Assembly: GCA_963663025.1 (NCBI GenBank)
Contig: OY760073.1
Span: 1,897,354 to 1,961,353, forward strand
Direction: 5' to 3'
Length of the DNA stretch: 64,000 bases
From: Dehalococcoidia bacterium
GTDB taxonomy: Bacteria > Chloroflexota > Dehalococcoidia > Lucifugimonadales > JAGWBF01
Below the pieces are notes generated by a model. It was not told where the DNA came from. It saw only the letters and a program-made list of their open reading frames with translations, and did no database searches. A program made the position numbers and the translations under genes. Position 1 is the stretch's first letter; every line of letters starts with the position of its first letter. Positions 19,335-46,516 of the stretch are shown one piece after another.

Positions 19335-20040
19335 AACTGCCCGTTCGCCCTTCGAGAGCCTCAGCACGAACGGGGCCCGCCGTCATTGCGGCCCCCCACC
19401 GTCATTGCGGCGTAGGCCGCAATCCAGGAAACACAGGCTGGGGAGCAAGCCTCCCATACCGTCCCTCCTGCCCATTCGCCCTTCGAGAGCCTCAGGGCGA
19501 ACGGCAGTATAAGGCCCACGCCCCCCATTCGTGCTGAGGGGACTCGAAGCATGAACGGGGGCCGTCGTCATTGCGGCGTAGGCCGCAATCCAGGAAAGTC
19601 AGGCCGGAAACAGCTGGGTGTGACAAAGATGCCCCGCCGTCATTGCGGCGTAGGCCGCAATCCAGGAAAGTCAGGCCGGGGACAGGCCGCCCATACCGTC
19701 CCCCTGCCGTTCCCCCTTCGAGAGCCTCAGGGCGAACGGCTGTGCAGGCCCACGCCCCCCGTTCATGCTGAGCACCCCCTTCCGTTCGTGCTGAGGCTCT
19801 CGAAGCACGAAGGGAGGGTGAAGGACGAAGCCATCCGCCGTCATTGCGGCGTAGGCCGCAATCCAGGACGGAGCATTGCCGGGTCCCGGGATGGCTCCTT
19901 TATCCCCGTAAGTGCCATATTGAGGAACTTGGCCCAATTCCAGGTCTAGGGTTTCCTGGATTGCGGCCTCCGCCGCAATGACGACTAGCGTGGAGGACGT
20001 CCCTGCCGTTCACCCTTCGAGAGCCTCAGGGCGAACGGAC
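19335..20040. repeat. REP/BIME-like mosaic array 1
   Basis: Modules A (about 5 copies) and B in both orientations; track ORFs here (e.g. 19551..19949) are repeat translations. Confidence 0.9.
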
Positions 20041-20053
20041 AATCCCGCTGTCG

Positions 20054-20083
20054 TTGACGAAAGATTGCCTCGGCTACTATAGT
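20054..20083 (+). promoter_or_regulatory. sigma70-like promoter of the small-protein/protease pair
   Basis: TTGACG (20054-20059) - 18 nt - TATAGT (20078-20083). Confidence 0.45.
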
Positions 20084-20136
20084 GGACTTGAGGCGCCTTA
20101 ATGCCCTGAACCAGGGGAGAGCGCACTCCCACACAA

Positions 20137-20150
20137 GGTCCTCGAGGACC
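20137..20150. promoter_or_regulatory. perfect 14-bp palindrome, operator-like
   Basis: GGTCCTCGAGGACC between the promoter and ATG 20179. Confidence 0.35.
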
Positions 20151-20178
20151 GAAAAGAGTAGGCGATGAGAAGGGGAAA

Positions 20179-20466
20179 ATGGCTACAGGACCGAGTCCAC
20201 GCCAAGTCATAGAAGAGATGGGTGGGGCCAAAGCGGTCCTTGCGGGGTTTACTGAGTTCTATAACAGGATGAACGCCCTGGATGCCAAGCGATCCCAGCT
20301 TACCGAAGAGTACCCCGATAAGTGGATCGCCTTGCACAACGGAGAGGTAAGTGTCAGCTCCGATTCCCTGGAAGAACTCCTTGGAGAAATGGACCGCCTC
20401 GGCATACCAAGGAAAGAGTCCATCGTCGAATTTATGGAAACCGAGCGCAGAAACCTGGTTCTTTAG
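20179..20466 (+). CDS. small protein resembling DUF5678-type proteins
   Basis: 95 aa, good RBS (GAGAAGGGGAAA-ATG); C-terminal EYPDKWIALHNGEVSVSSDSLEELL pattern. Confidence 0.6.
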   Translation: MATGPSPRQVIEEMGGAKAVLAGFTEFYNRMNALDAKRSQLTEEYPDKWIALHNGEVSVSSDSLEELLGEMDRLGIPRKESIVEFMETERRNLVL

Positions 20467-20478
20467 CAGGCCTGCCTC

Positions 20479-20919
20479 TTGATTAGCGGAACCTTTGACC
20501 CAACGTACAGACGGCCCTACGTCCGGGGCCGTCTTGCTTTACCCGGCCTCCACCTCGATGACTACATCTACTTCCTCGTGGATACTGGGGCAGACACCAC
20601 CACGATCTATCCCCGCGACGCGCTGCGCATGGGCATCGACTACGACAAGCTCTCTCCCGTGGAGGTCCCCCAGTACGGGGTCGGAGGCATCGAATATGCC
20701 TCTGAGGAACACGCAAACATCTTTTTCCAAGATGGCCGCTCTATCCGCACTTACACCATCCTGGTATCCGTTCCTAGGCCAACGGAACACAATATTCGCC
20801 TCCCCTCTCTCTTGGGCCAGGACATCATCCAGTACTGGAGAATGGTCCACGACAAACGCCGGGACCGCTTGACCTTCACCGTTCGCCGGGCAGACCTGAC
20901 CCTGCGCAGCCACCAATGA
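20479..20919 (+). CDS. retropepsin-like (clan AA) aspartic protease, single domain
   Basis: 146 aa; FLVDTGADTTTI catalytic DTGA at residues 35-38 and SLLGQDIIQYW near the C terminus, parallel to retroviral LLDTGADDTV / IIGRNLL. Confidence 0.75.
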   Translation: MISGTFDPTYRRPYVRGRLALPGLHLDDYIYFLVDTGADTTTIYPRDALRMGIDYDKLSPVEVPQYGVGGIEYASEEHANIFFQDGRSIRTYTILVSVPRPTEHNIRLPSLLGQDIIQYWRMVHDKRRDRLTFTVRRADLTLRSHQ

Positions 20920-20930
20920 CCCCCTACTTC

Positions 20931-20987
20931 TCCGAGGCCGCCCTCCGCGCCGCCTTCCCCGACCCATCTTCCCCCCTCCCTTGATGC
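20931..20987 (+). repeat. 57-nt duplicate of the 3' end of the epimerase gene (partner 19278..19334)
   Basis: TCCGAG-N-CCGCCCTCCGCGCCGCCTTCCCC-N7-CTTCCCCCCTCCCTTGATGC present at both sites, including the TGA stop. Confidence 0.85.
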
Positions 20988-21522
20988 TCTTTTTTCGTCC
21001 CCCTCCCTTGATGGGAGGGGATTAAGGGGAGGGTGATACCCAGCCCCGAGCCTCCCCTAATTTTGCTCCCCCTCACCCCAACCCTCTCCCTCCAGGGGCG
21101 AGGGAGTATTGGGAGGGTGACCCGCCCGCTAGAGAAGGCCCCCCTGCCCGTTCGCCCTGAGGCTCTCGAAGGGTGAACGGCTGTACAGGCCGCCGCTGCC
21201 CCCCCGTTCGTGCTGAGACTGTCCTGAGGCTCTCGAAGGGGGGACTCGAAGCATGAACGGGGGGGGGCCGCAATCCAGGACGGAGCATTGCCGGATCCCG
21301 GGATGGCTCCTTTCCCTCAGTGACTACTACAGTGGAGACCTGACGCAGTCCCGGAGTTTCCTGGATTGCGGCCTACGCCGCAATGACGAATAGCGTGGAG
21401 GACGTCCCTGCCGTTCACCCTTCGAGAGCCTCAGGGCGAACGGCTGTACAGGCCGCCGCTGCCCCCCGTTCGTGCTGAGCCTGTCCTGAGGCCCTCGAAG
21501 GAGGAAATCGAAGGGGAACGGG
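20968..21522. repeat. REP/BIME-like mosaic array 2
   Basis: Modules D, C, B, A, B. Confidence 0.9.
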
Positions 21523-21572
21523 CGGAGCCATAACGCACGGCAGGTGTCAGGGTGTCCCTACATCCCAGCCGG

Positions 21573-22488: not shown

Positions 22489-22491
22489 TGT

Positions 22492-23220
22492 CTTTATCCC
22501 CCTCACTCCAACCCTCTCCCGCCAGAGGAGAGGGGGCCCCAATATCTCCCCCCTCCCTTGATGGGAGGGGACTAAGGGGAGGGTGAAACACTGAAGGGAG
22601 CCATCCTGCTAGCCGGCAGCGCTCCGTCCTGGATTGCGGCCTCCGCCGCAATGACGAACAAGGTGGAGGGCGCCCATACCGTCCCACCTGCCCGTTCACC
22701 CTTCGAGGGCCTCAGGGCGAACGGACAGTATAAGGCCCACGCCCCCCGTTCGTGCTGAGCACCCCCTTCCGTTCGTGCTGAGGCTCTCGAAGCACGAAGG
22801 GACAAGCCGCCCCTACATTAGAGCCATCCTGGAACCCGGCAGCGCTCCGTCCTGGATTGCGGCCTTCGCCGCAATGACGAATAGCGTGGAGGCCGCCCAT
22901 ACCGTCCCACCTGCCCGTTCACCCTTCGAGAGCCTCAGGACAGGCTCAGCAGGAACGGGCCCCACCGTCATTGCGGCGTAGGCCGCAATCCAGGAAAGTC
23001 AGACCGGGAACAGCTGGTTGTGACGACCCCCCCACCGTCATTGCGGCGTAGGCCGCAATCCAGGAAAGTCAGACCGGGAACAGCTGGTTGTGACGACCCC
23101 CCCACCGTCATTGCGGCGTAGGCCGCAATCCAGGAAAGTCAGACCGGGAACAGCTGGGTATGACGAAAACCCCCCACCGTCATTGCGGCGTAGGCCGCAA
23201 TCCAGGAAACCTAGGTCGGG
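22492..23220. repeat. REP/BIME-like mosaic array 3 (includes 70-bp tandem)
   Basis: Modules C-D-A-B-B-A-B then four tandem module-A units. Confidence 0.9.
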
Positions 23221-23251
23221 GCCAGGGGCGTGGGGATGACGGGGCAGGGAA

Positions 23252-23587
23252 TCAGGGCGGCCCAATAAGCCACGAACCGCCGTCAGCCTCAGTGATCCTC
23301 AGGCCGTGGGCCCTGGCGATGGCTTCGTGCACCGACGATAGCTCCGCAGGAGGATTGGCGAGTTCCAATAGCAGGTCGCGCCCGTGGCTTTGTGAAAGCT
23401 CGCCCATCGAGTGCAGCAGCTCATCGAAGAAGGATGGCGTAAATCCTTGGATTCCCGCAAAGTCCAGCGCCAAAGATTCCGCCGATTCATTCAACGCCTC
23501 CGCTATGCCCGCTCCCACATTCCTGGCCGTTGTCCTCGTGACAAGCAATTTGAATGCGACCATATCTGCGATGCCTATCATGCCCAC
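23252..23587 (-). CDS. STAS-like protein resembling DUF4325
   Basis: 111 aa; LALDFAGIQGFTPSFFDELL pattern; GGAGGTG RBS; 11 nt downstream of the ATPase gene. Confidence 0.65.
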   Translation of the reverse strand: MGMIGIADMVAFKLLVTRTTARNVGAGIAEALNESAESLALDFAGIQGFTPSFFDELLHSMGELSQSHGRDLLLELANPPAELSSVHEAIARAHGLRITEADGGSWLIGPP

Positions 23588-23598
23588 ACCTCCGCCCC

Positions 23599-24204
23599 TC
23601 AGCCCGGAATCGAAGCGTAAGCTAGCGTACCGGGAAACAACTTTGTACGCCGTGCCTGGCTCTGGAGTTCTTCCCCTATCTGAAGCACACCAATACCGGA
23701 CTGTATTAAGAGCTGCCTTTGCGCCTTTCGCACCTCTTCCACCACGCTGAATAGCCCCATACCCCTGGTGGGGTCCTGCGTTCCGCTTACCCGTTCCTGC
23801 ATAGCAACCTCAATCGCCACCCAGTCATAGGGCACCCGGGCCAACAGCGCAGGGTTCCGCTCCAGCGAGCGCCTGATCCCTATTCCTCCATCAGCTACGG
23901 CGCAGATGAACCGAGGCCCGTTGGCCGACTCCCGGTATTGGATATAACCGAAGGCGCCGACCTCGGATTCCGAGTGCTGGACTGCATTGAGCGCCAGCTC
24001 GGCGAAAGCGTCGGCCACCACTTGGTAAATGTTTGAAGCTCCAAGCCCGGAACCTGTCAGACCATCGATTACATCGTTGGCGACCTTCTCGACTTGGTAC
24101 TCGGATTCCAGATCGGTCAATGGCAAAATGAGCCTTTCAGTGCCTCCGCCTGGAACATCTCTATCGTCGATCGCCACTCCCTTTTCCTTCAGGATATCGA
24201 ACAT
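23599..24204 (-). pseudogene. 3' part of IS-disrupted STAS-GHKL ATPase gene (SpoIIAB/RsbW-like kinase domain)
   Basis: N-box ELALNAVQHS, G1 VADGGIGI, G2 TRGMGLF. The ATG at 24204 is internal to the reconstructed gene. Confidence 0.75.
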
Positions 24205-24374
24205 GCCAAGGGACTTCAGGTAGCTGGGTTCCGTTTGCTTCTAGTGTCTTGCCTATGGTAGCATTTCCGTATGGCTGAGTTTAACCACCGAGAAGGGATA
24301 TTGCGTTCAGTGTGAGATGAACAAACGGACGCCCTGGAGTATGCGGCTCCAGGGCGTCCAGACCAAGGGGGGCT

Positions 24375-24648
24375 ATGGAGATGCTGGTTAACGTCCTGTC
24401 GTTGGTACTTGGGTGTTCGGTTGTATTGGGGAGTTTCTTTGCTGGCTGGCTTCTAGGTGCGCTTCTGAATTCTGACTCTTGGGCGACGAGCATAGGTAGC
24501 ACGGCTCTACTCCTATGCGGATTTTTTGGCGTCGTCGCACTTGTACCTTTGCTACTATCCCAAGCATTATGAAGGTGAAACTCAACATGAAGGTTGAGAA
24601 GATTGCTAGGAGACTAGTAACATCCGTTACGCCGTGCTCAAACAGCAT
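24375..24648. other. small hydrophobic ORF(s) inside the IS, strand ambiguous
   Basis: Plus-strand 65-aa two-helix ORF (24375..24572). Overlapping minus-strand 86-aa ORF (24388..24648) has an AAGAGG RBS and a downstream hairpin at 24327-24359. I cannot decide between them. Confidence 0.3.
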
Positions 24649-24689
24649 AATTACCTCTTAGTGCAGAAGCTAGCTTACAACAAACACAA

Positions 24690-24977
24690 GTGTGGTTGTC
24701 AACTATGAGCAGGCGCAGGAAGAACGGAGACCTGACCGACTATGAGTTGGCTTGGGTTGTGCGGGAAGTTTCCAAGCTCACCAACAAGAGTTTCCGTGAG
24801 ATCGGAGAGAACCTTGCCAACGAAATGTCCGACAATGAGGATGTTCTCTCCGAGGATGACTTCGAGCTAGGGAACAACATCGCTGCCACGCTGGAAACGC
24901 TTTGGCCCAGAGAGGGATTATGGCAGCCTGGGCCGAATGCAGAGCGGGCATTGAAGCTAATCCAACGGGTGCTGTAG
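24690..24977 (+). CDS. IS accessory ORF (hypothetical)
   Basis: 95 aa (probably from ATG 24705), ends 9 nt before the transposase ATG; weak RBS. Confidence 0.4.
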   Translation: MWLSTMSRRRKNGDLTDYELAWVVREVSKLTNKSFREIGENLANEMSDNEDVLSEDDFELGNNIAATLETLWPREGLWQPGPNAERALKLIQRVL

Positions 24978-24985
24978 GAGCTCAC

Positions 24986-26146
24986 ATGACCGAGTTTACC
25001 GAGACCACAACCTACATCATCACCTGCCCCGACTGCCAGGGGAATAAGGTCAGGAAGCACGGCTTCCAGGCAGGGCAGCAACGCTATTTCTGCAAGGGCT
25101 GTAAAAAGGCGTTCCGTGCCAACGGCAAAGCCCAGGGCCGCAGAATGGACGCCGACATGGTGGGTTCCGCCATCAGGGACTACTACACTGGCAAAAGCTA
25201 CAAGCAGATTGCCGAAGGGCTGAAGAATGAGTACGACCTGGCGAAGGAGCCGAGCAAGGCCACCATCTATGAGAACGTGAGGGATTACACCACCAAGGCC
25301 GTTGGGGAGCTGAAAGACCACAAGGCCAAGACGGGCGGCCACTGGGTAGCCGATGAAATGCAGGTGGATGTGGGCGGGGAAAAGGTGTGGCTGTGGAACG
25401 TGATGGACTCCAAGACCCGCTACATTCTGGCATCCCATCTGACACCAAGACGGGATGCCCAAGCCGCCAGGGTGGTCTTGCGAAAGGCGGCGCTGGCGGC
25501 AGATAAGCCCCCCACAAGCATCACGACCGACAAGCTACGTTCCTACATTCCAGCCGTCAAGGATGTCATTCCCGAGTCCAAGCATATCCAGTCCGAGGGG
25601 ATGCGGGCCAAGGTCAACAACAACCTTTCGGAGCGTTTGCAAGGGACCTTCAGAGACCGCATAAAGACTTTGCGGGGCCTCGACAGCATCAAGACTGGTC
25701 AGCACTACCTCGACGGCTGGACGCTGACTTACAACCATTTCCGAGGCCATGAAAGCCTTGGGAATAAGACGCCAGGGGAGAAGGCGAAGATGAAGCCTCC
25801 GTTCAGGGAGTGGGCAGACGTGGTAAAAGCAGGGGCCGCAACCCTGCCGAAGGTAAAGGCGGGGAAGCGGCCATCGCTATCGTTACCGAAGTCGAGACAG
25901 CCAAAAGCCAGCCAGGATAAGGAAGCTGGCACGAAACGACGTGGACGCATCAAACCGCCCAAGCCTGTGTTGCCGAAGGTGGGACGGTCTCAAGCAGACC
26001 AGGGTAAGAAAGCTGGCAAGAGACCACGTGGTCTTATCGAACCGCCCAAGCCTGTGTTGCCGAAGGTGGGACGCCGTGCCAAGAAGCCTAAATCTCGAAC
26101 TCCCAGGTGGGCAAGAGTCATCCCACGTCTGCCACGACGGAATTAA
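24986..26146 (+). CDS. DDE transposase with N-terminal CxxC..CxxC zinc finger
   Basis: AGGAG 5 nt upstream of the ATG; CPDCQGNKVRKHGFQAGQQRYFCKGCKKAF. DDE-like blocks WVADEMQVDV, SITTDKLRSY, NNNLSERLQGTFRDR (IS6/IS240-type spacing). Basic C-terminal tail with a 29-aa tandem duplication. Confidence 0.85.
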   Translation: MTEFTETTTYIITCPDCQGNKVRKHGFQAGQQRYFCKGCKKAFRANGKAQGRRMDADMVGSAIRDYYTGKSYKQIAEGLKNEYDLAKEPSKATIYENVRDYTTKAVGELKDHKAKTGGHWVADEMQVDVGGEKVWLWNVMDSKTRYILASHLTPRRDAQAARVVLRKAALAADKPPTSITTDKLRSYIPAVKDVIPESKHIQSEGMRAKVNNNLSERLQGTFRDRIKTLRGLDSIKTGQHYLDGWTLTYNHFRGHESLGNKTPGEKAKMKPPFREWADVVKAGAATLPKVKAGKRPSLSLPKSRQPKASQDKEAGTKRRGRIKPPKPVLPKVGRSQADQGKKAGKRPRGLIEPPKPVLPKVGRRAKKPKSRTPRWARVIPRLPRRN

Positions 26147-26172
26147 CTGTCACTGGCCAGTGACAGTTAATT
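26141..26172. repeat. perfect 32-nt palindrome at the IS right end
   Basis: AATTAACTGTCACTGG|CCAGTGACAGTTAATT overlapping the transposase stop codon. Confidence 0.85.
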
Positions 26173-26209
26173 GGACGCAAAACGTCAAACACTACTAGCA
26201 AACGGAACC

Positions 26210-26450
26210 GGTAGCTGCACACCCCCATGTTTTCCGGCACGAGAAGGGTGCAGTCGCACCCCCTCCGTTTGGCCAGCAGGGAGTACACCAGGCACCACAT
26301 CACCGCCGAAGGTTCAATGAACTCGCAAGTCCGCAAATCAATCTCCACGCTGGATTCTCTGAACTCGGAAGCCCGGGGGTCTGGCACAGCGAACCCCTTC
26401 AAATTGCCTGGATGATTAAACCTGGGTAAGGGTACAAACCTCACAGGCAT
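26210..26450 (-). pseudogene. 5' part of IS-disrupted STAS-GHKL ATPase gene (STAS-like domain)
   Basis: MPVRF...IDLRTCEFIEPSAVMWCLVYSLLAKRRGCDCTLLVPENMGVCSY. Removing the IS plus one target-duplication copy joins it in frame to ...LKSLGMFDILKEKG of 23599..24204. Confidence 0.7.
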
Positions 26451-26536
26451 CGGCCCTCTGAAGGCTCCTCCGGGGCCAGCCCGCCCCCCATCTCCCAGTC
26501 CATCGGCACAGCACCCTCTATCTGATACATGGCTCA

Positions 26537-26545
26537 AGTATAACA
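26537..26545 (-). promoter_or_regulatory. extended -10 promoter (TGtTATACT) for the STAS-GHKL operon
   Basis: Reverse complement reads TGTTATACT about 85 nt upstream of ATG 26450. Confidence 0.3.
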
Positions 26546-26564
26546 GCACGCCGGGCAAGAAGGC

Positions 26565-27322
26565 CTTTATCCCCCTCACCCCAGCCCTCTCCCACCAGGG
26601 GAGAGGGAGCCCCAATATCTCCCCCCTCCCTTGATGGGAGGGGACTAAGGGGAGGGTGAAGCACTGAAGGGAGCCATCCTGCTAGCCGGCAGCGCTCCGT
26701 CCTGGATTGCGGCCTTCGCCGCAATGACGAACAAGGTGGAGGGCGCCCCAGCCGTTCGTGCTGAGGCTCTCGAAGCACGAAGGGAGGGTGAAGGACGAAC
26801 CCCACCGTCATTGCGGCGTAGGCCGCAATCCAGGAAACACAGGCCGGGAACAGGCCGCCCATACCGTCCCCCCTGTCCGTTCGCCCTTCGAGTCCCCTCA
26901 GGGTGAACGGCTGTACAGGCCCACGCCCCCCGATTCTCCCCTTCGAGTCCCCTCAGGGCGAACGGGCAATGCGGCTGACTCCCCCCGTTCGTGCTGAGCA
27001 CCCCCTGTCCGTTCGTGCTGAGGCTCTCGAAGCACGAAGGGGCAGACCGCCCCTGCACTAGAGCCATCCTGGAACCCGGCAGCGCTCCGTCCTGGATTGC
27101 GGCCTACGCCGCAATGACGAATATCCTTGCAATGATGAAAAGCCTGGGGGGCCCAGGGCCAGGAAGGCGTCGGGGGTGAAGACAACGCCCCCACCGTCAT
27201 TGCGGCGTAGGCCTCAATCCAGGAAACCTAGGCCGGAGGCAGGCCGCCCATACCGTCTCCCCTGCCCGTTCACCCTTCGAGAGCCTCAGGGCGAACGGAC
27301 GGCTTCCCTCAGGGTGAACGGA
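26565..27322. repeat. REP/BIME-like mosaic array 4
   Basis: Modules C-D-A-B-A-B-B-B-A-A-B; first 184 bp nearly identical to 22492..22675. Confidence 0.9.
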
Positions 27323-31307: not shown

Positions 31308-31345
31308 GAGGGGCCCCGCCAGTCGGCGGGGCCCCTCGCTTTTTC
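31308..31345 (+). terminator. intrinsic terminator
   Basis: Perfect 13-bp stem GAGGGGCCCCGCC-AGTC-GGCGGGGCCCCTC followed by GCTTTTT. Confidence 0.85.
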
Positions 31346-31362
31346 TGCGGGCCATACATCCT

Positions 31363-33907: not shown

Positions 33908-34017
33908 CGCAATGCCGGATCCCAGAGGGGCAACGGCTGAGGAAGTATAGCTGGCGGGGAAGGGGGGAGTCAACGTTTTCAGCTACGATTATCGATTCAA
34001 TATGTCAAGCCGATTCC

Positions 34018-35130: not shown

Positions 35131-35155
35131 GGGGCCATCCCCCGGCCGCCAGCCT

Positions 35156-36607
35156 CCGTTCACCCTTCGAGAGCCTCAGGGCGAACGGAAGACGACGGGC
35201 CTTTCGTCATTGCGGCGTAGGCCGCAATCCAGAACGGAACGTTGCCGGGTTTCAGGCTGGCTCTCACCAGGGTAGGCCCCGTTCATGCTTCGAGTCCCCC
35301 CTTCGAGAGCCTCAGGACAGGCTCAGCACGAACGGGAGCGTCGGCCTTATACTGCCGTTCGCCCTTCGAGAGCCCCTTCGAGAGCCTCAGGACGAACGGA
35401 ATACGACGGGCCTGCCTGTCCCAGGCCCTGGGTTTCCTGGATTGCGGCCTTCGCCGCAATGACGGCGTCCCCAGTTCGTACTTCGAGTCCCCTCAGCACG
35501 AACGGGAGCGTCGGCCTTATACTGTCGTTCGCCCTGAGGCTCTCGAAGGGTGAACGGAGGACGACGGGTTTAGCAGCGGGGCGTAGACTCCCGCTTGCGC
35601 GGGAGTGACGGTGGGGGTAGCGGGAGTGACGGTGAGGGTGCCCTCACACCAGCCACGCTATTCGTCATTGCGGCGTAGGCCGCAATCCAAGACGGAGCGC
35701 TGCCGGGTTTCAGGCTGGCTCTCGCCAGGGTGGGCCCCGTTCATGCTTCGAGTTCCCTCAGCACGAACGGGGAGCGTCGGCCTTATACTGCCGTTCGTCC
35801 TGAGGCTCTCGAAGGGCGAACGGACGACGACAGGTTTAGCAGCAGGGAGTAGACTCCCGCTTGCGCGGGAGTGCCGGGCAACGTAGAGCATCCGCGCCGT
35901 TCGTCATTGAGGCCTTCGCCGCAATGACGGTGGGGGCCTTTCGTCACACCCGCGCCCTTCCGGACCTTGCGTCCCATACCCTTCCCCACACCAGCCACGC
36001 TATTCGTCATTGCGGCGTAGGCCGCAATCCAAGACGGAGCGCTGCCGGGTTTCAGGCTGGCTCTCGCCAGGGTGGGCCCCGTTCATGCTTCGAGTTCCCC
36101 CTTCGGGCGCCTCAGGACAGCCTCAGCACGAACGGGAGTGGGGATCAGGGCGAACGGAGATATATATTATCCCCCCTCCCTTGAGGGAGGGGATTAAGGG
36201 GAGGGTGATGCCCCCGCCGGGAGCGCATCCCCCATGGTGGTCCCCCTCACCCCAACCCTCTCCCACCAGGGGAGAGGGGGTAGGGGCTTCTCCCGTTCGT
36301 GCTTCGAGTTCGTACTTCGAGAGCCTCAGGACAGGCTCAGCACGAACGGGGGCGTCGGCCTTATACTGTCGTTCACCCTGAGGCTCTCGAAGGGCGAACG
36401 GCCTGTCAGGGGCCTGCCTGATTCCAGCCTGAGTTTCCTGGATTGCGGCCTTCGCCGCAATGACGGCAGGGGGGCCGTTACAGCCAGCCTTACTCGCACC
36501 AAGCCTCCTCGGATGTATTATGATGTAGGCGTCCCCCTCACCCCAACCTTCTCCCGCGGGGAGTCCTACTCCCCCCTCCCTTGAGGGAGGGGATAAAGGG
36601 GAGGGCG
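35156..36607. repeat. REP/BIME-like mosaic array 7 (longest non-tandem array)
   Basis: Modules B, A, E, D, C in repeated blocks. Confidence 0.9.
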
Positions 36608-36736
36608 AGACTATTTCAACGAAGGGGTCGTGCATTGAACACCAGATATGGCATGGAGCATGCGGCCGAGGCGTGCTGCCGCAGGGGGATCATATTCGCG
36701 GAGGAGTCGGCCTACGGCGCCACCAGCCAGGCTGGG

Positions 36737-39232: not shown

Positions 39233-40095
39233 ACCGTCGTTCCCAGGCCTCCCGCCCCTGTCCGCTCCCCCTTCGAGTTCCCTCAGGGTGAGCGGACAGG
39301 GGGAGAGCGCTCAGTCCCCCGTTCATGCTTCGAGAGCCCCATCGACAGGCTCAGCACGAACGGGAGTGGGGATCAGGACGAACGGGCGACGGCGGGTTTG
39401 GCGGCAGGACGTAGACTCCCACTTGCGCGGGAGTGACGGAAGCAGGGGCGGCCACGCTTTTCGTCATTGCGGCGAAGGCCGCAATCCAGGACGGAGCGCT
39501 GGCGGGTTCCAGGCTAGCTCCTAAGTTGGAGCCAGCAGACCCTTGGGGGAGGACAACACCTCTGCCAAGCAGCCCAGCCGTTCGTCCTTCGAGTCCCCTC
39601 AGGACGAACGGCCTGTCAGGGGCCTGCCTGTCCGAGGCCCTGGGTTTTCTGGATTGCGGCCTTCGCCGCAATGACGGATTGATGCTCCCCCTCACCCCAA
39701 CACTTTCCCACTAGGGGTCGTCCCCGCCGTCCCGCCCCTGTCCGCTCTCCCTTCGAGTTCCCTCAGGGTGAACGGACAGGGGGAGAGGGTCAGTCCCCCC
39801 GTTCGTCCTGAGCCTGTCCTGAGGCTCTCGAAGGGGAACTCGGAGGGCGAACGGCCTGTCAGGGGCCTGCCTGTCCCAGGCCCTGGGTTTCCTGGATTGC
39901 GGCTTACGCCGCAATGACGGATTGATGCTCCCCCTCACCCCAACCCTCTCCCACCAAGGGTCGTCCCCGCCGTCCCGCCCCTGTCCGCTCCCCCTTCGAG
40001 AACCTCAGTGTGAACGGACAGGAGGAGAGGGTCAGTCCTCCCGTTCATGCTTCGAGAGCCTCAGCACGAACGGGGGTGGGGCTCAGCACGAATGG
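39233..40095. repeat. REP/BIME-like mosaic array 8
   Basis: Modules E, B, A, C in three roughly colinear blocks. Confidence 0.9.
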
Positions 40096-40161
40096 GAGAG
40101 GGGGTAGGCGGCGGGTAAAGTGCTGGAAATAGATGCCTTCAGGGACTGGTGAATGGAAACG

Positions 40162-40227: not shown

Positions 40228-41682
40228 ATGGGAGGGTTCGACAGGGCATACTCGACCCAAAGCGACTCAACTGATGTAGGGAAGCGGTGGTGGGCATCTC
40301 CCTTCCCGGCAGCTATAGCCCTTATGCTGTCTGTCCTGCTGGCCCTGACCTTGGCGCCAGCTATATTTGCTTCCGGCCATACCTTCACAGTCTCGTTGGG
40401 GAGTGGCGCGGTCACCCTCACTGGCGACGGCAACGACACCGCCGAGGTCATTCTAAGTGTGAATGTGACCTCTTCAACCAACGAGGTTCTGAGCACCGGC
40501 GATGAGATCACAGTCTCTATCGTTACGGGCGACCAAACTACAGCCAAGGCTGGCGACTACATGCTTGCGACAGCGGACATGGTGTTCACCAGCAATGATA
40601 TAACTGACCAGCAGACAGGTGCGATCGCCTCGGGCTCCAAGACTGCCAAGTTGTCCTTCGATATCAGCAAGGTTTCATCAAGCATCGAAGAGGAGGGCGA
40701 CAACCCCTGGCTGCTCACCCTTAAGGCCGAAATCGGCAGCGACGGCTGCCCGACGCGCAACAATGCCATCATCTGCAGCGCCTCTGACGGCCAGCAAACC
40801 GTCGCGGTCATCGCTGAGGACACGCCGGTGAAGGTCACGGTGCCCAACGGCGCTGCCCAGACCGGCGATGCGCCCAAGAACGGCAAGGCTGTATTCGACG
40901 GGACCACGATGACCTACACGCCGGCCAGGAACGTGCCCGCCGACCCGGACTCGGTGGCCCTGGACTCGGTAACGTGGACAGTGACCAGCGGAGGCAACCA
41001 CGGACGTGTGAACATCATCATCGTCCCCATAAACGACATACCTGAGCGCCGGGGGGCCATCCCTGCGATGACCCTGGTGGCCGGCGGTGAGTCGGCGACC
41101 CAACTTGTGGCAGGCCGCTTCGAGGACTACGACGGCGATGCCCTCTCCTACGGCGCCCGCAGCAGCAACCCCGACGTGGCAACGGCGGCGATAGTGGGCC
41201 GGCTGGTCAGCGTTACCCCCGTCAGCGAGGGTGATGCCATGATCACGGTGACCGCCAGGGACCCGGACGGGGTGGTGGCCCAGATCAACCAGATCAGGTT
41301 CGCCGTAACGGTAACGCCGGGCGAGGCTGAAGAGGACGAGGCTGTGGCCGCTCCGTACCCGACACCCAGGCCCACGGCAACACCCATGCCCACAGCCACG
41401 CCGGTGCTGCCGGAGCCTACTCCCACGCCGACGCCTACCCCAACGCCGACGCCCACTCCGACGCCGACGCCTACTCCCACGCCGACGGCGACGCCGGAGC
41501 CTACGGCAACGCCCACGCCCGTGCCTCCGACGCCCGTGCCTCCAACCCCGACACCCACGCCGGAGCCGGAGCCCCAGGATGAGGGTGGACTGGCAGTTAT
41601 CTGGTGGATACTGATTATCCTCGCCATAGTGGTGGTTATTGTTGCTGCGTCGGTAGGGTACGTCGTAATGCGACGGTCATAA
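40228..41682 (+). CDS. surface protein: signal peptide, beta-rich domains, (PT)n linker, C-terminal TM anchor
   Basis: 484 aa; signal AIALMLSVLLALTLAPAIFA; Calx-beta-like TAKAGDYMLATADMVF; Ig/cadherin-like ALSYGARSSNPDVATAAIVG...ITVTARDPDG; PTPTPTPT... linker; anchor VIWWILIILAIVVVIVAASVGYVVMRR. Confidence 0.75.
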   Translation: MGGFDRAYSTQSDSTDVGKRWWASPFPAAIALMLSVLLALTLAPAIFASGHTFTVSLGSGAVTLTGDGNDTAEVILSVNVTSSTNEVLSTGDEITVSIVTGDQTTAKAGDYMLATADMVFTSNDITDQQTGAIASGSKTAKLSFDISKVSSSIEEEGDNPWLLTLKAEIGSDGCPTRNNAIICSASDGQQTVAVIAEDTPVKVTVPNGAAQTGDAPKNGKAVFDGTTMTYTPARNVPADPDSVALDSVTWTVTSGGNHGRVNIIIVPINDIPERRGAIPAMTLVAGGESATQLVAGRFEDYDGDALSYGARSSNPDVATAAIVGRLVSVTPVSEGDAMITVTARDPDGVVAQINQIRFAVTVTPGEAEEDEAVAAPYPTPRPTATPMPTATPVLPEPTPTPTPTPTPTPTPTPTPTPTPTATPEPTATPTPVPPTPVPPTPTPTPEPEPQDEGGLAVIWWILIILAIVVVIVAASVGYVVMRRS

Positions 41683-41851
41683 GAGTCCAAGGAATAGAAT
41701 TGCAACACCCCCCTTCCTTCAAAGAAGGGGGACAGGAAATCGAGACACGATAGCAGGCTCCTCCCTTAAAGGGGAGGGGCTTGGGACCCCAGCTACAATC
41801 TTTGGAAACGTGGGCCAGGGGTGACGATGAGGTGAGGAGGTGTTTGCAGAG

Positions 41852-42682
41852 ATGCACCGGTCCATGTTGGCCCTTCCGCTAGTCCTCCTGCTGGTATTTG
41901 CCGCCCTGGGCGCCCAGATGGGCCAGGGCACCGCCCCTCCCGGACCGCCGGTGGGGTACTTCGGGACGATCACCATGAGCGACGGCTCCGACCCTACGGG
42001 CTATAGCTTGGTCGCATGCGTGAACGGGTGCGATACGACCGCCGGCGGATGGGAAAGCCAGCCGGTGGAGATCGGGGCCGGAGGGAGCTACAACGCCCTG
42101 ATCGTCGGGCCTCCCGACGGCAGCTTTAGCGGCAGGCCCATAACCTTCTGGATCGCGAACGAGGGCGGCAGGATCCAGGCCACGGAGAGCGTTAACCTCA
42201 ATTCGACACCTCCCCTGTACAGAGGGCAGAACCTGACCTTCGAGGGTGCGCTGCCTGTGGCGCCGGAGCCGACCCCGGCGCCTACGCAGGAACCTACGCT
42301 TGTACCGCCAACGCCGGCGCCCACACCTGAACCTACGCCCGTGCCTCCTACTCCCGTTCCGCCTACCCCCGCGCCTGAGCCGACGGCAACGCCTACTCCG
42401 ATACCGCCTACGCCCGTCCCACCGACTCCCACGCCCGAGCCGACAGCGACCCCGGAACCCACGGCTACTCCTGAGCCGACGGCAACGACGGCGCCGCCTA
42501 CGAACACTCCCATGCCGGAGCCTACTGCCGTGCCGGAGCCTACTCCAACGCCCGAGCCCGAGGAGGAAGAAGGGGGAGGCACAAACGTCTTCCTGTGGAT
42601 GTTCATCGGCCTTGTGGTCTTCCTGGTGGGGGGTGGGACACTGGTGTTCGTCTTCAGGAACAAGATACTGGGCTTGGACTAG
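41852..42682 (+). CDS. surface protein: signal peptide, small domain, P/T/E-rich linker, C-terminal TM anchor
   Basis: GAGGAGG upstream of ATG 41852 (ORF open from GTG 41840); [21 protein letters not shown] signal; long PTP/EPTAT linker; anchor [23 protein letters not shown]. Confidence 0.7.
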
Positions 42683-42727: not shown

Positions 42728-42772
42728 GAAGGCTTGGGTGGAGGAGGTCCACCCAAGCCTTCCTGTTTGTGT
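42728..42772 (+). terminator. intrinsic terminator-like hairpin
   Basis: Perfect 14-bp stem GAAGGCTTGGGTGG-AGGAGGT-CCACCCAAGCCTTC followed by CTGTTTGTGTG. Confidence 0.7.
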
Positions 42773-42786: not shown

Positions 42787-44313
42787 CGTTCCCGCTTGCG
42801 CGGGAGTGACCGTAAGAGGCAGAGCTTCGGGAAGGCTGGGTGCGTCGAAAGGCTGCCTCGTCATTGCGGCGTAGGCCGCAATCCAGGACGGAGCACCGCC
42901 GGACTCCAGGATGATTCCAATGCCCCCTCACCGTCATTGCCGTGAAAGCGGGGACACTGCCTTAGTAAAGAGCACGGCGGCTGCGGGAGTGACGGTAATT
43001 TGAGGCAGCCTGTCCCAGGCTCGGAGTATCCTGGATTGCGGCCTACGCCGCAATGACGAAAGGCGTTGCCGGTGTGAGGAGAGGTGGGTATCGCAATGCT
43101 CGGAATGGGGCGGCCTGGTGTTTCCCATGTCCGTTCCCCCTTCGAGAGCCTCAGGACGAACGGACAAAGGGAACGCCAGAAGAGGGCAGGAATTCAAAAG
43201 AAGGCCGGTTGTGCCGAAAGGCTATGCCGTCATTGCGGCGTAGGCCGCAATCCAGCACGGACACTGCCGGACTCCAGGTGGACTACTTAATCACGGCAGT
43301 TACTGCTTGGGGGGCCTGTTCCCAGCTCGGAGTATCCTGGATTGCGGCCTTCGCCGCAATGACGAAAGGCGTTGCCGGTGTGAGGAGGGGTGGGAGTCGC
43401 AATGCCCGGAATGGGGCGGCCTGGTGTTTCCTCTGCCCGTTCCCCTTCGAGTTCGTACTTCGAGAACCCCTTCGACAGGCTCAGGGCGAACGGACAAAGG
43501 GAACGCCAGAAGAGGGCAGGAATTCAAAAGAAGGCCGGTTGTGCCGAAAGGCTATGCCGTCATTGCGGCGTAGGCCGCAATCCAGGACGGACACTGCCGG
43601 ACTCCAGGTGGACTACCTAATCACGGCAGTTACTGCTTGGGGGGCCTGTTCCCAGCTCGGAGTATCCTGGATTGCGGCCTACGCCGCAATGACGAAAGGC
43701 GTTGCCGGTGTGAGGAGAAGTGGGTATTGCAATGCCCGGAATGGGGCGGCCTGGTGTTTCCCATGTCCGTTCCCCCTTCGAGAGCCTCAGGACGAACGGA
43801 CAAAGGGAACGCCAGAAGAGGGCAGGAATTCAAAAGAAGGCCGGTTGTGCCGAAAGGCTATGCCGTCATTGCGGCGTAGGCCGCAATCCAGGACGGAGCA
43901 CCGCCGGACTCTAGGTGGACTACTTAATCGCGGCAGGTACTGCATCAGGGGGCCTGTTCCCAGCCCGCAGTATCCTGGATTGCGGCCTACGCCGCAATGA
44001 CGAAAGGCGTTGCCGGTGTGAGGAGAGGTGGGTATCGCAATGCCCGGAATGAGTCGGCCTGGTGTTTCCTCTGTCCGTTCGCCCTTCGAGTTCGTACTTC
44101 GAGAGCCCCTTCGACAGGCTCAGGACAGGCTCAGCACGAACGGGAGGAGAGAAGGCCTGTCCGCTCCCCCTTCGAGTCCCCTCAGGGTGAGCGGACAAGG
44201 GGGAGGGTGACGCCCCCGCCAGAAGCGCATCCTCCATGATGGTCCCCCTCACCCCAACCCTCTCCCACCAGGGGAGAGGGGTAGTAGATATGTGTCCGTG
44301 GCGGGAACGACGA
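42787..44313. repeat. REP/BIME-like mosaic array 9 with higher-order tandem repeat
   Basis: Composite unit of about 306-330 bp (modules A, B, A plus unit-specific sequence) starting at 43027, 43333, 43663, 43971. Confidence 0.9.
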
Positions 44314-44330
44314 TGAGTGGGCCCGCTGCC

Positions 44331-44359
44331 TTGACCATGTGGCTCTGAGCTTGTATATA
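44331..44359 (+). promoter_or_regulatory. sigma70-like promoter
   Basis: TTGACC (44331-44336) - 17 nt - TATATA (44354-44359). Confidence 0.45.
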
Positions 44360-44369
44360 GAGGACATTC

Positions 44370-45335
44370 TTGGGGAAGGAGCCTTTTTCTGCGTTGACCG
44401 GGCGTAAGCTGAGATTCGGGGCTGTCCTGAGCTTGGGTCTTGGCGAGACGGCGGCCGAGGCTCGATGGCTGGAGGAGCTGGGCTACGACTATTGCGGGTC
44501 GGGAGAGCACTTCATGCGCGGAGACCCGCCCAAGCCATCGTCGGCTGCTCTTTCCGCCCTGGCTGTGGCCGGGGGCGCCACCGAGACCCTCGGCTTGGTG
44601 TCCTCGGTGATCTTGCTGCCCTTCTACCATCCCACGGTCCTTGCCAAGCTGGCCACCACCATGGACATCGCCACCAACGGGCGCCTGGTGCTGGGAGTGG
44701 GCGTGGGAGGCGAGTTCCCCGTGGAGTTCCAGGCGGCCGGCCTCTCGGTGAAGCAGAGGGGGGGCAGGTCCGACGAGTGCCTGGAAGCCCTGCGCAACCT
44801 GTGGACCCGCCGCGAGGTGGACTACGAGGGGCGCCACTTCAATCTGAAGGGTGTGACCATCGAACCTCCGCCCCACCAGCAGCCCCACCCGCCGGTGTGG
44901 GTGGCCGGGCGACGGGATGCGGCCATGAAGCGGGCAGTGCGCCTGGGGGACGGCTGGCTCCCCTATTTGTACAGCCCCGAGCGGTACCGCGCCAGCGTCT
45001 CTCACATATCCTCCCTGGCGGCCGGGGAGGGCCGGGACCTGTCAGGGTTCACATGGGCCAACTTTCAGTTCATATCCATAGGCGAATCCAGGGAGCAGGC
45101 GGCCTCGGCGGCCGCCTCGGCCCTGGGCGGCCAGTACCTGTACCAGGGGAACTTCCTGGATATCGTCGGTAGCTACTGCGTGCTGGGCACCCCGGATGAG
45201 TGCGTCAGCCGTATCCAGGAGTACGTGGATGCCGGGGTTGAGCAGTTCCTGTTCAACTGGGCATGTCCGCCCGAGGATGTACCCCGGCACATCGAAACCG
45301 TCGCCAAGGAGATCATCCCGCACTTCCGGGACTAA
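44370..45335 (+). CDS. luciferase-like monooxygenase (LLM) family oxidoreductase, probably F420-dependent
   Basis: RFGAVLSLG...ARWLEELGYDY, LGVGVGGEFPVEF blocks; no ATG start, TTG 44370 or TTG 44394. Confidence 0.8.
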   Translation: MGKEPFSALTGRKLRFGAVLSLGLGETAAEARWLEELGYDYCGSGEHFMRGDPPKPSSAALSALAVAGGATETLGLVSSVILLPFYHPTVLAKLATTMDIATNGRLVLGVGVGGEFPVEFQAAGLSVKQRGGRSDECLEALRNLWTRREVDYEGRHFNLKGVTIEPPPHQQPHPPVWVAGRRDAAMKRAVRLGDGWLPYLYSPERYRASVSHISSLAAGEGRDLSGFTWANFQFISIGESREQAASAAASALGGQYLYQGNFLDIVGSYCVLGTPDECVSRIQEYVDAGVEQFLFNWACPPEDVPRHIETVAKEIIPHFRD

Positions 45336-45352
45336 CCAAGAGGAGGTGAACC

Positions 45353-46168
45353 ATGTCCGGAATCTGGCCCGGCGACATACAGTGTGTGGCTATGCTGTCC
45401 TTCGACGTGGATGGGGTGTCGTCCTGGCTCAGGCGCAACCCCGACTTCGCCAGGATGCCCAGCCTCATGTCCATGGCAGAGTACGGCCCCGGCGTGGCTG
45501 CGCCCCGCATCCTGGACATCCTGGACGCCCATGACATCAAGGCGACTTTCTTTGTGCCAGGCTACGTGGCCGAGACCCACCAGGACCTGGTTCGGGACAT
45601 CTGCGGGCGGGGGCACGAGGTGGCCCATCACGGATACATGCACGAAGCCCCCGCCTCCATGAACGCCGAGGAGGAAGAGGAGGTGATCCGAAAGGGCATC
45701 GACATTCTCCAGGGTCTGACCGGCCATCGGCCCGTCGGCTACCGATCCCCCAGCTGGGAGCTGAGCGAGGCGTCCCTGGACCTGCTGTCCCGCTACGAGT
45801 TCTCCTACGACTCCAGCCTGATGGGCGACGATGCCCCCTACATGGTGGACTCCGGAGAGGGACGGCTGGTAGAGATACCTGTGAGCTGGGTGCTGGATGA
45901 TGCTCCCCACTTCGTCCATGCCCCCTCGGCCCAGCGCACCAGCCCCATGAAGAGCCCCGACGAGGTGATGGAGATATGGCTGGCGGAGTTCGAGGGCCTG
46001 TATCGCTACGGAAGGGCCTTTCCCCTGACCATGCATCCCCAGTACATCGGGCGCCCGGGGAGGCTGCTAATGCTGGAGAAGCTCATCTCCCGGATATCAG
46101 CCTTCCCCAACGTGTCCTTCATGCGCATGATCGACGTCGCAGAGATGTGGGCGCCATCTGGCCCTTAA
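45353..46168 (+). CDS. polysaccharide deacetylase (NodB homology) family protein
   Basis: GAGGAGG RBS; SFDVDG, HDIKATFFVPG, HEVAHHGYMH metal/catalytic motifs. Confidence 0.85.
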   Translation: MSGIWPGDIQCVAMLSFDVDGVSSWLRRNPDFARMPSLMSMAEYGPGVAAPRILDILDAHDIKATFFVPGYVAETHQDLVRDICGRGHEVAHHGYMHEAPASMNAEEEEEVIRKGIDILQGLTGHRPVGYRSPSWELSEASLDLLSRYEFSYDSSLMGDDAPYMVDSGEGRLVEIPVSWVLDDAPHFVHAPSAQRTSPMKSPDEVMEIWLAEFEGLYRYGRAFPLTMHPQYIGRPGRLLMLEKLISRISAFPNVSFMRMIDVAEMWAPSGP

Positions 46169-46187
46169 GAGGGCCCTAGACTCCCGC

Positions 46188-46516
46188 GTGCGAAGACTAT
46201 AGCGCTACCCAGCCCGGTCCGTCCGTTCGCCCTTCGATTTCCCTCAGGACGAACGGACGGAGGATTTGGCAATAGGGGCGCAGACTCCAGCTTGCGCGGA
46301 AGAGACGGTATTTGGGGTATCCACGCTTTTTGTCATTGCGGCGTAGGCCGCAATCCAGGACGGAGCAATGCCGGGTTCAAGGTTGGAACCACCAACATTC
46401 CAAGCTTAGGGATAGGGCGCCTGTCCCCAGACCTAAGTTTCCTGGATTGCGGCCTACGCCGCAATGACGGGGCCAGTCCCCTTCACCCCAGCCCTCTCCC
46501 CCCAGGGGCGAGGGGG
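46188..46516. repeat. REP/BIME-like mosaic array 10
   Basis: Modules E, B, E, A, A, C. Confidence 0.85.

Follow-up and report, generated by a model that had tools for sequence, protein, structure and literature searches.

Bacterial interspersed mosaic elements (BIMEs), which are bound by integration host factor, gyrase, or DNA polymerase I, and Neisseria intergenic mosaic elements (NIMEs), whose dRS3 repeat is used as an integration target by phages and insertion sequences (ISs), are the described systems against which we compare the repeat arrays of a 64,000-nucleotide stretch (in the following "the window") from an uncultured Dehalococcoidia bacterium (assembly GCA_963663025.1, contig OY760073.1, positions 1,897,354 to 1,961,353 of the forward strand). 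A further point of comparison is the TMECO/PIT class of motifs, which in Escherichia coli often occur in inverted pairs. Both mosaics contain repetitive extragenic palindromic (REP) hairpins. Hairpins of this kind that carry a CGTC tag were surveyed by Di Nocera, De Gregorio & Rocco (2013, PMC3733652), and this survey describes an unpaired CGTC tag (variants TGTC and CCTC), 8-bp stems that in families 1 and 2 almost always start with A-T, a 4-nt loop in family 1, and a short tail, which is mostly CCA. According to the same survey, CGTC REPs mostly form tag-outward "HH" dimers with 20-100-bp spacers, have no associated transposase, and are rarely clustered except in Neisseria and Wolbachia; the CGTC-1 family takes in Neisseria dRS3 and Rickettsia RPE-6, whereby the NIME hairpin is itself a CGTC-1 element. 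The repeats are reported there from five phyla, Chloroflexota not being one of them. TMECO/PIT motifs follow the consensus CCCTCNCCC-N3-6-GGGNGAGGG-N3-GGGNGAGGG, are located in intergenic regions, and form an intramolecular triplex in vitro as determined by circular dichroism and nuclear magnetic resonance (Holder et al., 2015, PMC4666352).

The arrays of the window are a BIME/NIME-like intergenic mosaic and thus a known kind of feature, which here occurs in a phylum without previously listed CGTC REPs. We consider it probable that they are pile-ups of small non-coding and non-autonomous palindromic repeat families, namely CGTC REPs (modules A and E), TMECO/PIT-type motifs (modules C and D), and a stem-loop family (module B), which persist as fast-evolving passengers. 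Repeat blocks were defined blind by a self-BLAST of the window that used no prior consensus. This recovered 11 blocks where a preliminary description of the sequence had placed repeat arrays, with limits that agree within a few tens of bases, and the blocks sum up to 8,466 bp, compared to the ~8.6 kb estimated before (Table 1). Repeat coverage amounts to 30.3% for positions 19332-46540, 0.3% for positions 1-19331, and 1.0% for positions 46541-64000. The flanks are therefore nearly free of arrays, as had been stated, but the left flank consists mostly of tightly packed operons with gaps of <140 bp, which leave little room for repeats. Counting consensus matches with up to three mismatches, and taking the chance level from 100 shuffles per module, we obtained 43 copies of A, 17 of B, 8 of C, 5 of D, and 4 of E in the window and 0 matches for each module in the shuffled sequences. 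All five proposed consensus modules were thus found at their proposed places and none of them is expected by chance. The statement that all modules occur in both orientations is true of A and B, whereas C, D, and E matched on the + strand only. The recurring orders C-D-A and A-B are present among the composite repeat families, and the composite orders that recur in the arrays are C-D-A(-), A-B, and B-E-A(+)-A(-)-C.

Module A has the architecture CGTC-ATTGCGGC-G(T/A/G)AG-GCCGCAAT-CCA. The tag reads CGTC in 42 of the 43 copies and TGTC in one, all 43 copies end in ...GCAATCCA, a tail that is identical in copies from other phyla, and the loops read GTAG (23 copies), GAAG (11), GGAG (6), or GTAA (1). 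Conservation of A is confined to exactly the 30-nt tagged hairpin, with a mean pairwise identity of 96.6% within this core vs 33-38% in the 30 nt on either side. By the published text definition of the family, A is assigned to the CGTC-1 REPs, of which it presents every defining feature. Altogether, 66 perfect hairpins with 8-bp stems are present in the window, 45 of them with an NGTC tag. A 25-mer of the A core occurs as an exact match in Chloroflexota, Alpha-, Beta-, and Gammaproteobacteria, Bacteroidia, and Desulfobulbaceae, where tag and tail are kept and the flanks are unrelated. We further compiled a set of A loci that comprises the window and 125 loci (1.08 Mb) chosen for carrying A. 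In the 1.08 Mb of related loci, the pattern CGTC-N8-N4-N8-CCA yielded 266 perfectly paired sites with 12 different stems, whereas four control combinations of tag and tail yielded 0, so that the arms of A co-vary as in a family that is constrained by structure. The window harbors ten tag-outward A dimers, five of which measure 137-145 nt, as well as eight tag-inward pairs, which mostly represent junctions of tandem units. The 137-nt dimer unit is 71-79% conserved in other Dehalococcoidia metagenome-assembled genomes (MAGs), and a Pseudomonadota MAG contains 20 A dimers of 96 nt. In the related genome CBDBNM01, A was found on both contigs, in 15 or more separate blocks of 8 kb, and the A family is therefore genome-wide and not confined to one region.

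The preliminary description regarded all modules as hairpins. In a single-stranded DNA folding run this was clear for A (-9.5 kcal/mol, z -4.1), extended B (-16.1 kcal/mol, z -6.2), and E (-9.6 kcal/mol, z -4.2), while the C hairpin was weaker (-10.8 kcal/mol, z -2.7) and D (-10.4 kcal/mol, z -1.4) folded no better than shuffled sequence. Inverted A dimers reached -45 to -55 kcal/mol (z -8.3 to -9.5). On the opposite strand, E reads CGTC-ACTCCCGC-GCAA-GCGGGAGT, with GTTCCCGC as a variant stem. Stem length (8 bp) and loop length (4 nt) of E and its variants agree with CGTC-1, but the stem starts with AC or GT instead of A-T and the tail is CTA or CTG, so that the agreement is only partial. In the E hairpins at 35582-35611, 35848-35877, and 39410-39439, and in one at ~9660 in the relative L116, the stem is immediately preceded on its 5' side by GTAG and followed on its 3' side by GACG, which reads CGTC on the other strand. 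Both published REP superfamily tags are therefore combined on opposite sides of one stem, and E is a related CGTC-tagged REP hairpin that has a GTAG tag as well.

Read on the - strand, C has the structure CCCTCTCCCC-TGGT-GGGAGAGGG-TTG-GGGTGAGGG. The published TMECO regular expression gave seven exact matches in the window, all of them being module C on the - strand. Among 5,426 complete E. coli genomes, 5,409 contain full-length matches to C with 80-95% identity, which lie in unannotated DNA and have a median number of 19 per genome, and the purine arms (GGGAGAGGGTTGGGGTGAGGG) occur as exact matches in at least 120 IMG/VR viral contigs. Like the A core, the C motif thus varies very little between phyla. 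D (CCCCTCCC-TTGAT-GGGAGGGG-ATTAA-GGGGAGGG) has the same pyrimidine-purine-purine layout as C, lies off the exact TMECO consensus, and is usually paired with C in inverted orientation. Both purine arms also match the G-quadruplex pattern when the sequence is read directly. C is accordingly classed as a predicted triplex motif of the TMECO/PIT type and D as a putative similar motif. With the E. coli motifs, C shares the exact consensus fit (7 copies), the strictly intergenic position, the inverted pairing (D with C), the tie to intergenic variability, and the lack of a linked mobile-element gene; differences are that D departs from the consensus and that the motifs form part of larger arrays in which REPs occur as well. 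B is an unclassified long stem-loop family, an imperfect palindrome of the form CTGTCCGTTCGCCCT...AGGGTGAACGGACAG, whose tip region is often enlarged by short internal duplications. The 19-nt B tip (CCCTTCGAGAGCCTCAGGG) was found in at least 120 metagenome contigs (loci L252-L371) with a G+C content of 33-72% and heterogeneous contexts. We considered whether this tip is a fixed loop on variable stems, but an adjoining stem of at least 5 bp was present in only 25 of 137 metagenome copies (3 of 134 controls), and with the contexts being heterogeneous this idea could not be established. On a Robiginitomaculum MAG contig (L037, position ~211), the 15-nt core of the tip (TTCGAGAGCCTCAGG) lies within the loop of a C-type triplex motif.

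Taken as a whole, the resemblance to REP/BIME organization that had been proposed from the sequence was right, and it can be sharpened in that A and E belong to the CGTC-tagged REPs and C and D to the TMECO/PIT type, with the NIME as the closest architectural analogue. With the CGTC-1 REPs, A has in common the CGTC/TGTC tag, the 8-bp stem that starts with A-T, the 4-nt loop, the CCA tail, the extragenic location, and the high copy number, as well as the predominance of tag-outward dimers, the lack of a linked transposase, and a copy number that is strongly variable between related genomes. In contrast to CGTC REPs outside Neisseria and Wolbachia, however, clusters are the rule here. Like NIMEs and BIMEs, the arrays are strain-variable intergenic mosaics of REP hairpins that alternate in orientation and are interleaved with other short repeats, and they lie mostly between co-directional or convergent genes. 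Nevertheless, the stem sequences of A differ from dRS3 and from the Y and Z REPs of E. coli, so that the likeness is an architectural one only, the partners of the REPs are triplex-type motifs and the B stem-loop and not RS or BIME linker motifs, and the local density is very high, with 30% of 27 kb being covered and arrays of up to 1.5 kb.

The rapid turnover of the arrays became apparent from a comparison with six syntenic congeneric genomes (L116, L119, L122, L123, L124, and L125), whose genes show 70-96% nucleotide identity to those of the window. Gap lengths were measured between orthologous gene ends. The gap from the M1 peptidase gene to the next gene measures 1,001 bp in the window and 208-275 bp in the six relatives; the corresponding values are 1,687 bp and 167-561 bp for the gap between gene 41840 and the luciferase-like gene, 1,509 bp and 294-821 bp for hrcA to the M1 peptidase gene, and 767 bp and 215-576 bp for the lactamase gene to hrcA, while the gap between the deacetylase and the Zn-ribbon gene measures 477 bp in the window and 144-145 bp in L124 and L125. 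Some of the orthologous gaps in relatives lack any consensus module. Within the syntenic region, 43 A and 28 B modules were counted in the window compared to 3-11 A and 0-2 B modules in the six relatives, and two more distant Dehalococcoidia have zero A or B there. A and B have thus expanded specifically in the lineage of the window. The preliminary description had judged the density as well beyond that of classical BIMEs, which is true of the local density but reflects this lineage-specific amplification. Pairwise and three-way alignments revealed that the ~100-190 nt upstream of hrcA, of gene 40228, and of the Zn-ribbon gene are almost invariant, and that the DNA from the preceding stop codon up to this conserved promoter-proximal block is unalignable array sequence. 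Given the short gaps of the relatives, their low A and B counts, and the invariant promoter-proximal DNA, the arrays can be dispensed with at these sites, and their turnover by far exceeds that of the adjacent genes and promoters. At one orthologous position in array 6, an A(-) copy of the window corresponds to a REP with the GTTCCCGC stem in L116. Several C and D copies are conserved in position between genomes, for example the D copy that contains the stop codon of the epimerase gene. The best match to the B-E-A(+)-A(-) block of array 10 covers 260 nt at 79% identity and is located in a different gap (hrcA to the M1 peptidase gene) of L124. The short orthologous gaps of the relatives are not simple deletions of an array, and no clean pairs of empty and filled sites were found among them.

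These data bear directly on the inference of the preliminary description that each gene or gene pair is insulated by an array, which is not supported by our analysis. If the arrays were selected cis-regulatory elements, that is insulators, terminators, or stabilizers of mRNA 3' ends, it would make sense that 10 of the 11 arrays are located downstream of at least one gene 3' end and that A, B, E, and the A dimers form stable hairpins (z -4 to -9.5). It would also fit that, in PMC3733652, E. coli REPs are reported to stabilize upstream mRNA and REPs in general to lie mostly downstream of coding regions. Yet array length differs several-fold, down to module-free gaps, among congeners that have the same genes and near-identical promoters, and recent duplication accounts for most of the array length. 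Moreover, genuine intrinsic terminators of canonical form are located upstream of arrays 5 and 9 (Table 1), being unique hairpins and the only strong terminator-like sites beside arrays, no T tail was found on any module, and the arrays themselves contain only weak terminator-like matches with 5-6-bp stems, whose total count is at or below the shuffle expectation. One array (33351-33911) is flanked by divergent genes. The terminators in front of the arrays, the array in a divergent gap, and the turnover together argue against a role of the arrays as required insulators or terminators. In E. coli, TMECO/PIT motifs are reported to have neither promoter nor terminator activity (PMC4666352). Overall, we regard a selected cis-regulatory function of the arrays as quite unlikely.

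With regard to the way in which the arrays have grown, all arrays of at least 600 bp contain internal direct duplications of 110-800 nt with 78-97% identity at offsets of 70-1,014 bp. These include a tandem of a 70-bp unit in 3.5 copies with 97% identity (22960-23209) and a tandem of a ~306-330-bp unit in ~3 copies (43137-44124). In the related genome CBDBNM01, a locus that is unrelated to the window (L048, CBDBNM010000002.1, 3927-5598) harbors 4.9 copies of a 341-bp unit with an A dimer at 99% identity, which is a very recent amplification. Array growth is thus mostly local segmental or tandem duplication of multi-module blocks, and the very high local density of the arrays is due to recent segmental duplication. 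In addition, multi-module blocks of ~260 nt recur at unlinked gaps. One might suspect that such tandems are mis-assembled or artificially expanded repeats, as the contig is of MAG type and copy numbers such as 3.5 for the 70-bp unit and 3 for the 330-bp unit are error-prone for assemblers. However, the copies differ from each other by substitutions (78-97% identity), each array is uniquely joined to conserved genes and promoters, and in six genomes that were assembled independently, several of them with megabase-scale contigs, the same module families occur at many of the matching gaps. Furthermore, a 2.35-Mb contig (2,354,649 bp) is on record with an HrcA protein identical to that of the window. 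An assembly artefact therefore appears very improbable.

We also looked for a gene that could mobilize the modules. All-against-all clustering of 1,379 open reading frames (ORFs) near A from 115 loci yielded only housekeeping families or spurious repeat ORFs, and in a Pfam scan of 117 A-adjacent genes no family was present in more than three genes and no Y1 transposase was among the 25 most frequent of 151 matched families. A tblastn search with E. coli RayT gave nothing below E = 1 in the window and the 125 loci, and a crude HUH/Y motif search likewise gave nothing. A had no match in 72,556 plasmids or in IMG/VR, whereas B gave only partial matches in plasmids. That A has no linked transposase agrees with the literature on CGTC REPs (PMC3733652). 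The IS that resides in the window was considered as a source of the modules and rejected, since its 21-bp terminal inverted repeats (TIRs; GGTTCCGTTTGCTTCTAGTGT) are unrelated to them. The sequence CGAAAGGC is common to the flanks of several A copies, yet those copies are tandem duplicates of one another. Like REPINs, the mobile doublets associated with RAYT transposases, A dimers are inverted doublets of tagged hairpins that form one long hairpin and are conserved as a unit across related genomes; they differ in that the tag is CGTC and not GTAG, which in A occurs only in the loop, that the spacer is ~77 nt long, and that no RAYT homologue was found in the window and the loci. Miniature inverted-repeat transposable elements combine terminal inverted repeats with a target-site duplication and derive from a parent IS. 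The A dimers end in inverted stretches of 30 nt, whereas neither a consistent target-site duplication nor a parent IS was found for them.

HrcA and further proteins encoded in the window assign it to an uncultured Dehalococcoidia lineage. Ordinary chromosomal genes lie between the arrays and encode an epimerase, a phosphoenolpyruvate mutase-family protein, a 1,231-aa protein with Ig domains, a protein with a lactamase_B fold, HrcA, an M1 aminopeptidase, two Pro/Thr-rich proteins, a luciferase-like oxygenase, and a polysaccharide deacetylase. Ten of the 13 genes between arrays are core genes that are syntenic in the six relatives. Superficially, palindromic repeats that separate genes recall an integron cassette array with attC sites, and repeats that alternate with less similar spacers recall a CRISPR array. 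Against these systems speak the irregular spacing, the fact that the "spacers" are themselves repeated, the core genes with their own promoters between the arrays, and Pfam scans of ~50 larger ORFs of the window, which yielded no cas or integrase family. A structured non-coding RNA family was likewise sought, and an Rfam search of the arrays at gathering and permissive thresholds gave no family, only sub-threshold matches of plant miRNA precursors to the long hairpins. That the arrays belong to any of these known systems is extremely improbable.

ORFs that run through the arrays were considered as genes and rejected, as in the case of a 315-aa ORF (43053-44000) without Pfam match; in a codon-position GC screen, array ends were overlapped by only two weak borderline ORFs. 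For annotation this means that long array ORFs such as 43053-44000 are not genes and that "hypothetical proteins" predicted from them in MAGs are repeat artefacts. Array 1 starts inside a truncated D module that holds the stop codon of the epimerase gene. The reading frame of this gene enters D at 19317-19334 and ends with a TGA in the D loop, an arrangement that is conserved in L116 (~1825) and L125, while L124 has three tandem partial D arms at the 3' end of the epimerase gene.

It had also been proposed that the arrays serve as a recombination scaffold for the capture of accessory genes. This is supported in part, in that the two lineage-specific cassettes by which the window differs from L116, L124, and L125 are both situated within arrays and have duplicated array sequence on either side, but most genes between the arrays are core genes in syntenic positions, as described above. 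The first cassette encodes a DUF5678 protein and a retropepsin-like protein (Table 1). Together with array 1, it is bracketed by a 65-nt direct repeat (19270-19334 and 20923-20987, 88% identical), which consists of the 3' end of the epimerase gene and the first arm and loop of D, while the relatives have one intact D at this site. In L119 (1928-2736) and L122 (1275-2084), the same cassette is present with 75% nucleotide identity in a different gap, between the genes for the phosphoenolpyruvate mutase-family protein and the Ig protein, where ~110-nt direct repeats with D in them bracket it, and the position of the L119 cassette is taken by an IS in L123. The second cassette is a 3.3-kb insert between the duplicated arrays 3 and 4. 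It carries a gene for a STAS-like DUF4325 protein and a gene for a HATPase_c_2-like protein (23252-24204, - strand), which are present only in this genome among the seven compared, and an IS6-like IS of 1,983 bp (24227-26209) with 21-bp TIRs, which is located in the unique insert and not within a module. In the transposase ORF of this IS (24902-26146), an 87-bp unit is repeated in tandem 1.9 times (25912-26073). PADLOC detected only one weak match in the inserted cassettes, of the retropepsin-like protein to PDC-M08B, and no match of the DUF4325/HATPase-like pair to its defense-system models. The same gaps in relatives host an IS5-like element, GIY-YIG genes, and a PNPOx gene. Such insertions fit the report that triplex motifs go along with intergenic variability in E. 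coli (PMC4666352).

From these observations, the arrays, notably the D/C motifs, might be regarded as a recombination platform, that is as portable homology or break sites at which cassettes are excised, exchanged, and re-inserted without a dedicated integrase. The position of both lineage-specific cassettes within arrays would agree with this, as would their direct array duplications (65 nt at 88%, ending in the D loop; 184 nt at 96% and 187 nt at 90%), the D-containing repeats around the cassette in a second array-bearing gap of L119 and L122, and the further insertions in the relatives. However, only three events are available, and the two in L119 and L122 are not independent of each other. 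Any insertion can survive as neutral in a long non-coding gap, so that cassettes and arrays may share their location passively. Part of the 65-nt duplication is unique coding sequence from the epimerase gene, which fits an in-situ duplication better than integration by means of a dispersed repeat, and no pair of empty and filled sites with clean junctions was found among the genomes compared. A role of the arrays as rearrangement hot spots is partly supported, with few independent events, and a recombination platform appears quite unlikely to us. A related proposal, which we consider unlikely, is that the arrays form a transposase-free system for cassette shuffling in which D and C would be the break or recombination sites and small cassettes like the DUF5678/retropepsin-like one would move from array to array, duplicating the flanking segment each time.

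We therefore return to the arrays as pile-ups of passenger repeats. Here, the repeats would occupy the permissive DNA between the end of a transcription unit and the next promoter, as in BIMEs and especially NIMEs. Their hairpins might extrude in single-stranded DNA during replication or transcription and thereby promote slippage, unequal exchange, and breakage, by which arrays could expand and contract and become preferred sites for rearrangement and for the insertion of small accessory cassettes. Fragility of this kind is suggested by the 3' end of the epimerase gene with D, which is broken and duplicated around the inserted cassette, and by arrays 3 and 4, which are duplicates around the 3.3-kb insert. 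Effects on neighboring genes, such as protection of mRNA 3' ends, would be incidental and not the reason why the arrays exist. Several points weigh against this explanation. The A core is nearly identical both between copies of this genome and between phyla, which implies that its sequence is specifically constrained, for example through recognition by a protein or enzyme; a view of A as purely passive "junk" does not account for this. Array placement is not simply "every permissive gap", as the 656-bp gap between convergent genes at 1583-2238, the sole large array-free gap in the window, contains neither repeats nor a Pfam-recognizable ORF. No clean insertion of a single unit with a target-site duplication was found, so that transposition of single units can only be suggested, and the screen for a transposase covered ~1 Mb of related sequence that had been selected for carrying A. 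In addition, individual hairpins may have a regulatory role.

Table 1. Repeat arrays and other features of the window (coordinates refer to the 64,000-nt window)
Feature	Position	Self-BLAST block	Strand	Description
Array 1	19334-20042	19270-20042		five A copies, B stem-loops, one tag-outward A dimer (19839-19983)
Array 2	20923-21529	20923-21529		65-nt duplicate of the epimerase 3' end (20923-20987), then D, C, B, partial A, A(-)
Array 3	22492-23229	22492-23229		C-D-A(-)-B and more; terminal 70-bp A-unit tandem (22960-23209)
Array 4	26565-27303	26565-27303		nearly a duplicate of array 3 (96% over 184 nt, 90% over 187 nt)
Array 5	31363-32394	31418-32394		convergent gap between Ig-like protein gene and lactamase_B gene; seven A copies, B copies; CGTC hairpin with GTTCCCGC stem at 31363; internal 298-nt duplication, offset 369
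Array 6	33351-33911	33351-33911		divergent gap between lactamase_B gene and hrcA; two D-C inverted pairs (271-bp duplication), B-type hairpins, one A(-)
Array 7	35150-36611	35150-36611		hrcA to M1 peptidase gene, 1.46 kb; A, B, E, D-C, C-D; several internal duplications of 136-190 nt
Array 8	39236-40102	39236-40102		begins directly after the M1 peptidase stop codon; 243-bp duplication (92%)
Array 9	42787-44281	42828-44281		~306-330-bp unit (B and tag-outward A dimer) in ~3 copies, 88-95% identical; then D-like and C
Array 10	46203-46519	46203-46519		composite block B-E-A(+)-spacer-A(-)-C
Array 11	62110-62277	62110-62277		small outlier; B, A(-), C
Tag-outward A dimer, 137 nt ("HH" of Di Nocera et al.), example	43228-43364		+	folds as a single long hairpin, -45.4 kcal/mol, z -8.3
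D(+)/C inverted pair of triplex-type motifs, example	33366-33478		+	
DUF5678/retropepsin-like cassette	20099-20919		+	DUF5678 gene (20179-20466), retropepsin-like gene (20479-20919); absent at the site in L116, L124, and L125
Lineage-specific insert, 3.3 kb	23230-26564			between duplicated arrays 3 and 4
Canonical intrinsic terminator of the Ig-like protein gene	31308-31347		+	13-bp GC stem and T run; upstream of array 5
Canonical intrinsic terminator of gene 41840-42682	42728-42772		+	15-bp stem and T-rich tail; upstream of array 9
Promoter-like site TTGACA-18-TACATT and CIRCE-like inverted repeat	46549-46615		+	directly downstream of array 10; nearly invariant in relatives

Apart from the arrays, some neighboring loci are worth mentioning. 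The CIRCE-like repeat downstream of array 10 (TTAGCAGCT-N9-AGCTGCTAA, 46589-46615) lies upstream of a Zn_ribbon_8 gene and a D-Tyr-tRNA deacylase gene and is, by its sequence, a candidate HrcA operator at a distance of 12 kb from hrcA. The two Pro/Thr-rich genes (40228-41682 and 41840-42682) have no Pfam match, contain tandem repeats with periods of 6, 15, and 18 nt (41351-41562 and 42306-42559), and are the most divergent genes of the syntenic block with 70-83% identity. In the left flank, a hopanoid-type biosynthesis operon (5264-14804) encodes a polyprenyl synthase, a radical SAM protein with DUF3463 (HpnH-like), a PNP_UDP_1 phosphorylase, an epimerase, a squalene-hopene cyclase (9250-11364), two squalene/phytoene synthase-family proteins, and an amine oxidase.

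Overall, the arrays extend two poorly understood cross-phylum repeat classes, the CGTC REPs and the TMECO/PIT motifs, to uncultured Dehalococcoidia with small genomes (~2.35 Mb). The near-complete sister genomes catch these repeats in the midst of expansion and thus provide a resource for studying how they spread, why their 30-nt cores are near-invariant from relatives of E. coli to Chloroflexota, and whether rearrangement and gene insertion are driven by them. If the arrays did shuffle cassettes, the landing sites on offer would be multiplied by the burst of CGTC REPs that this genome has undergone. With seven near-complete congeners whose arrays differ several-fold, both cassette shuffling and the mobilization of CGTC REPs become testable.

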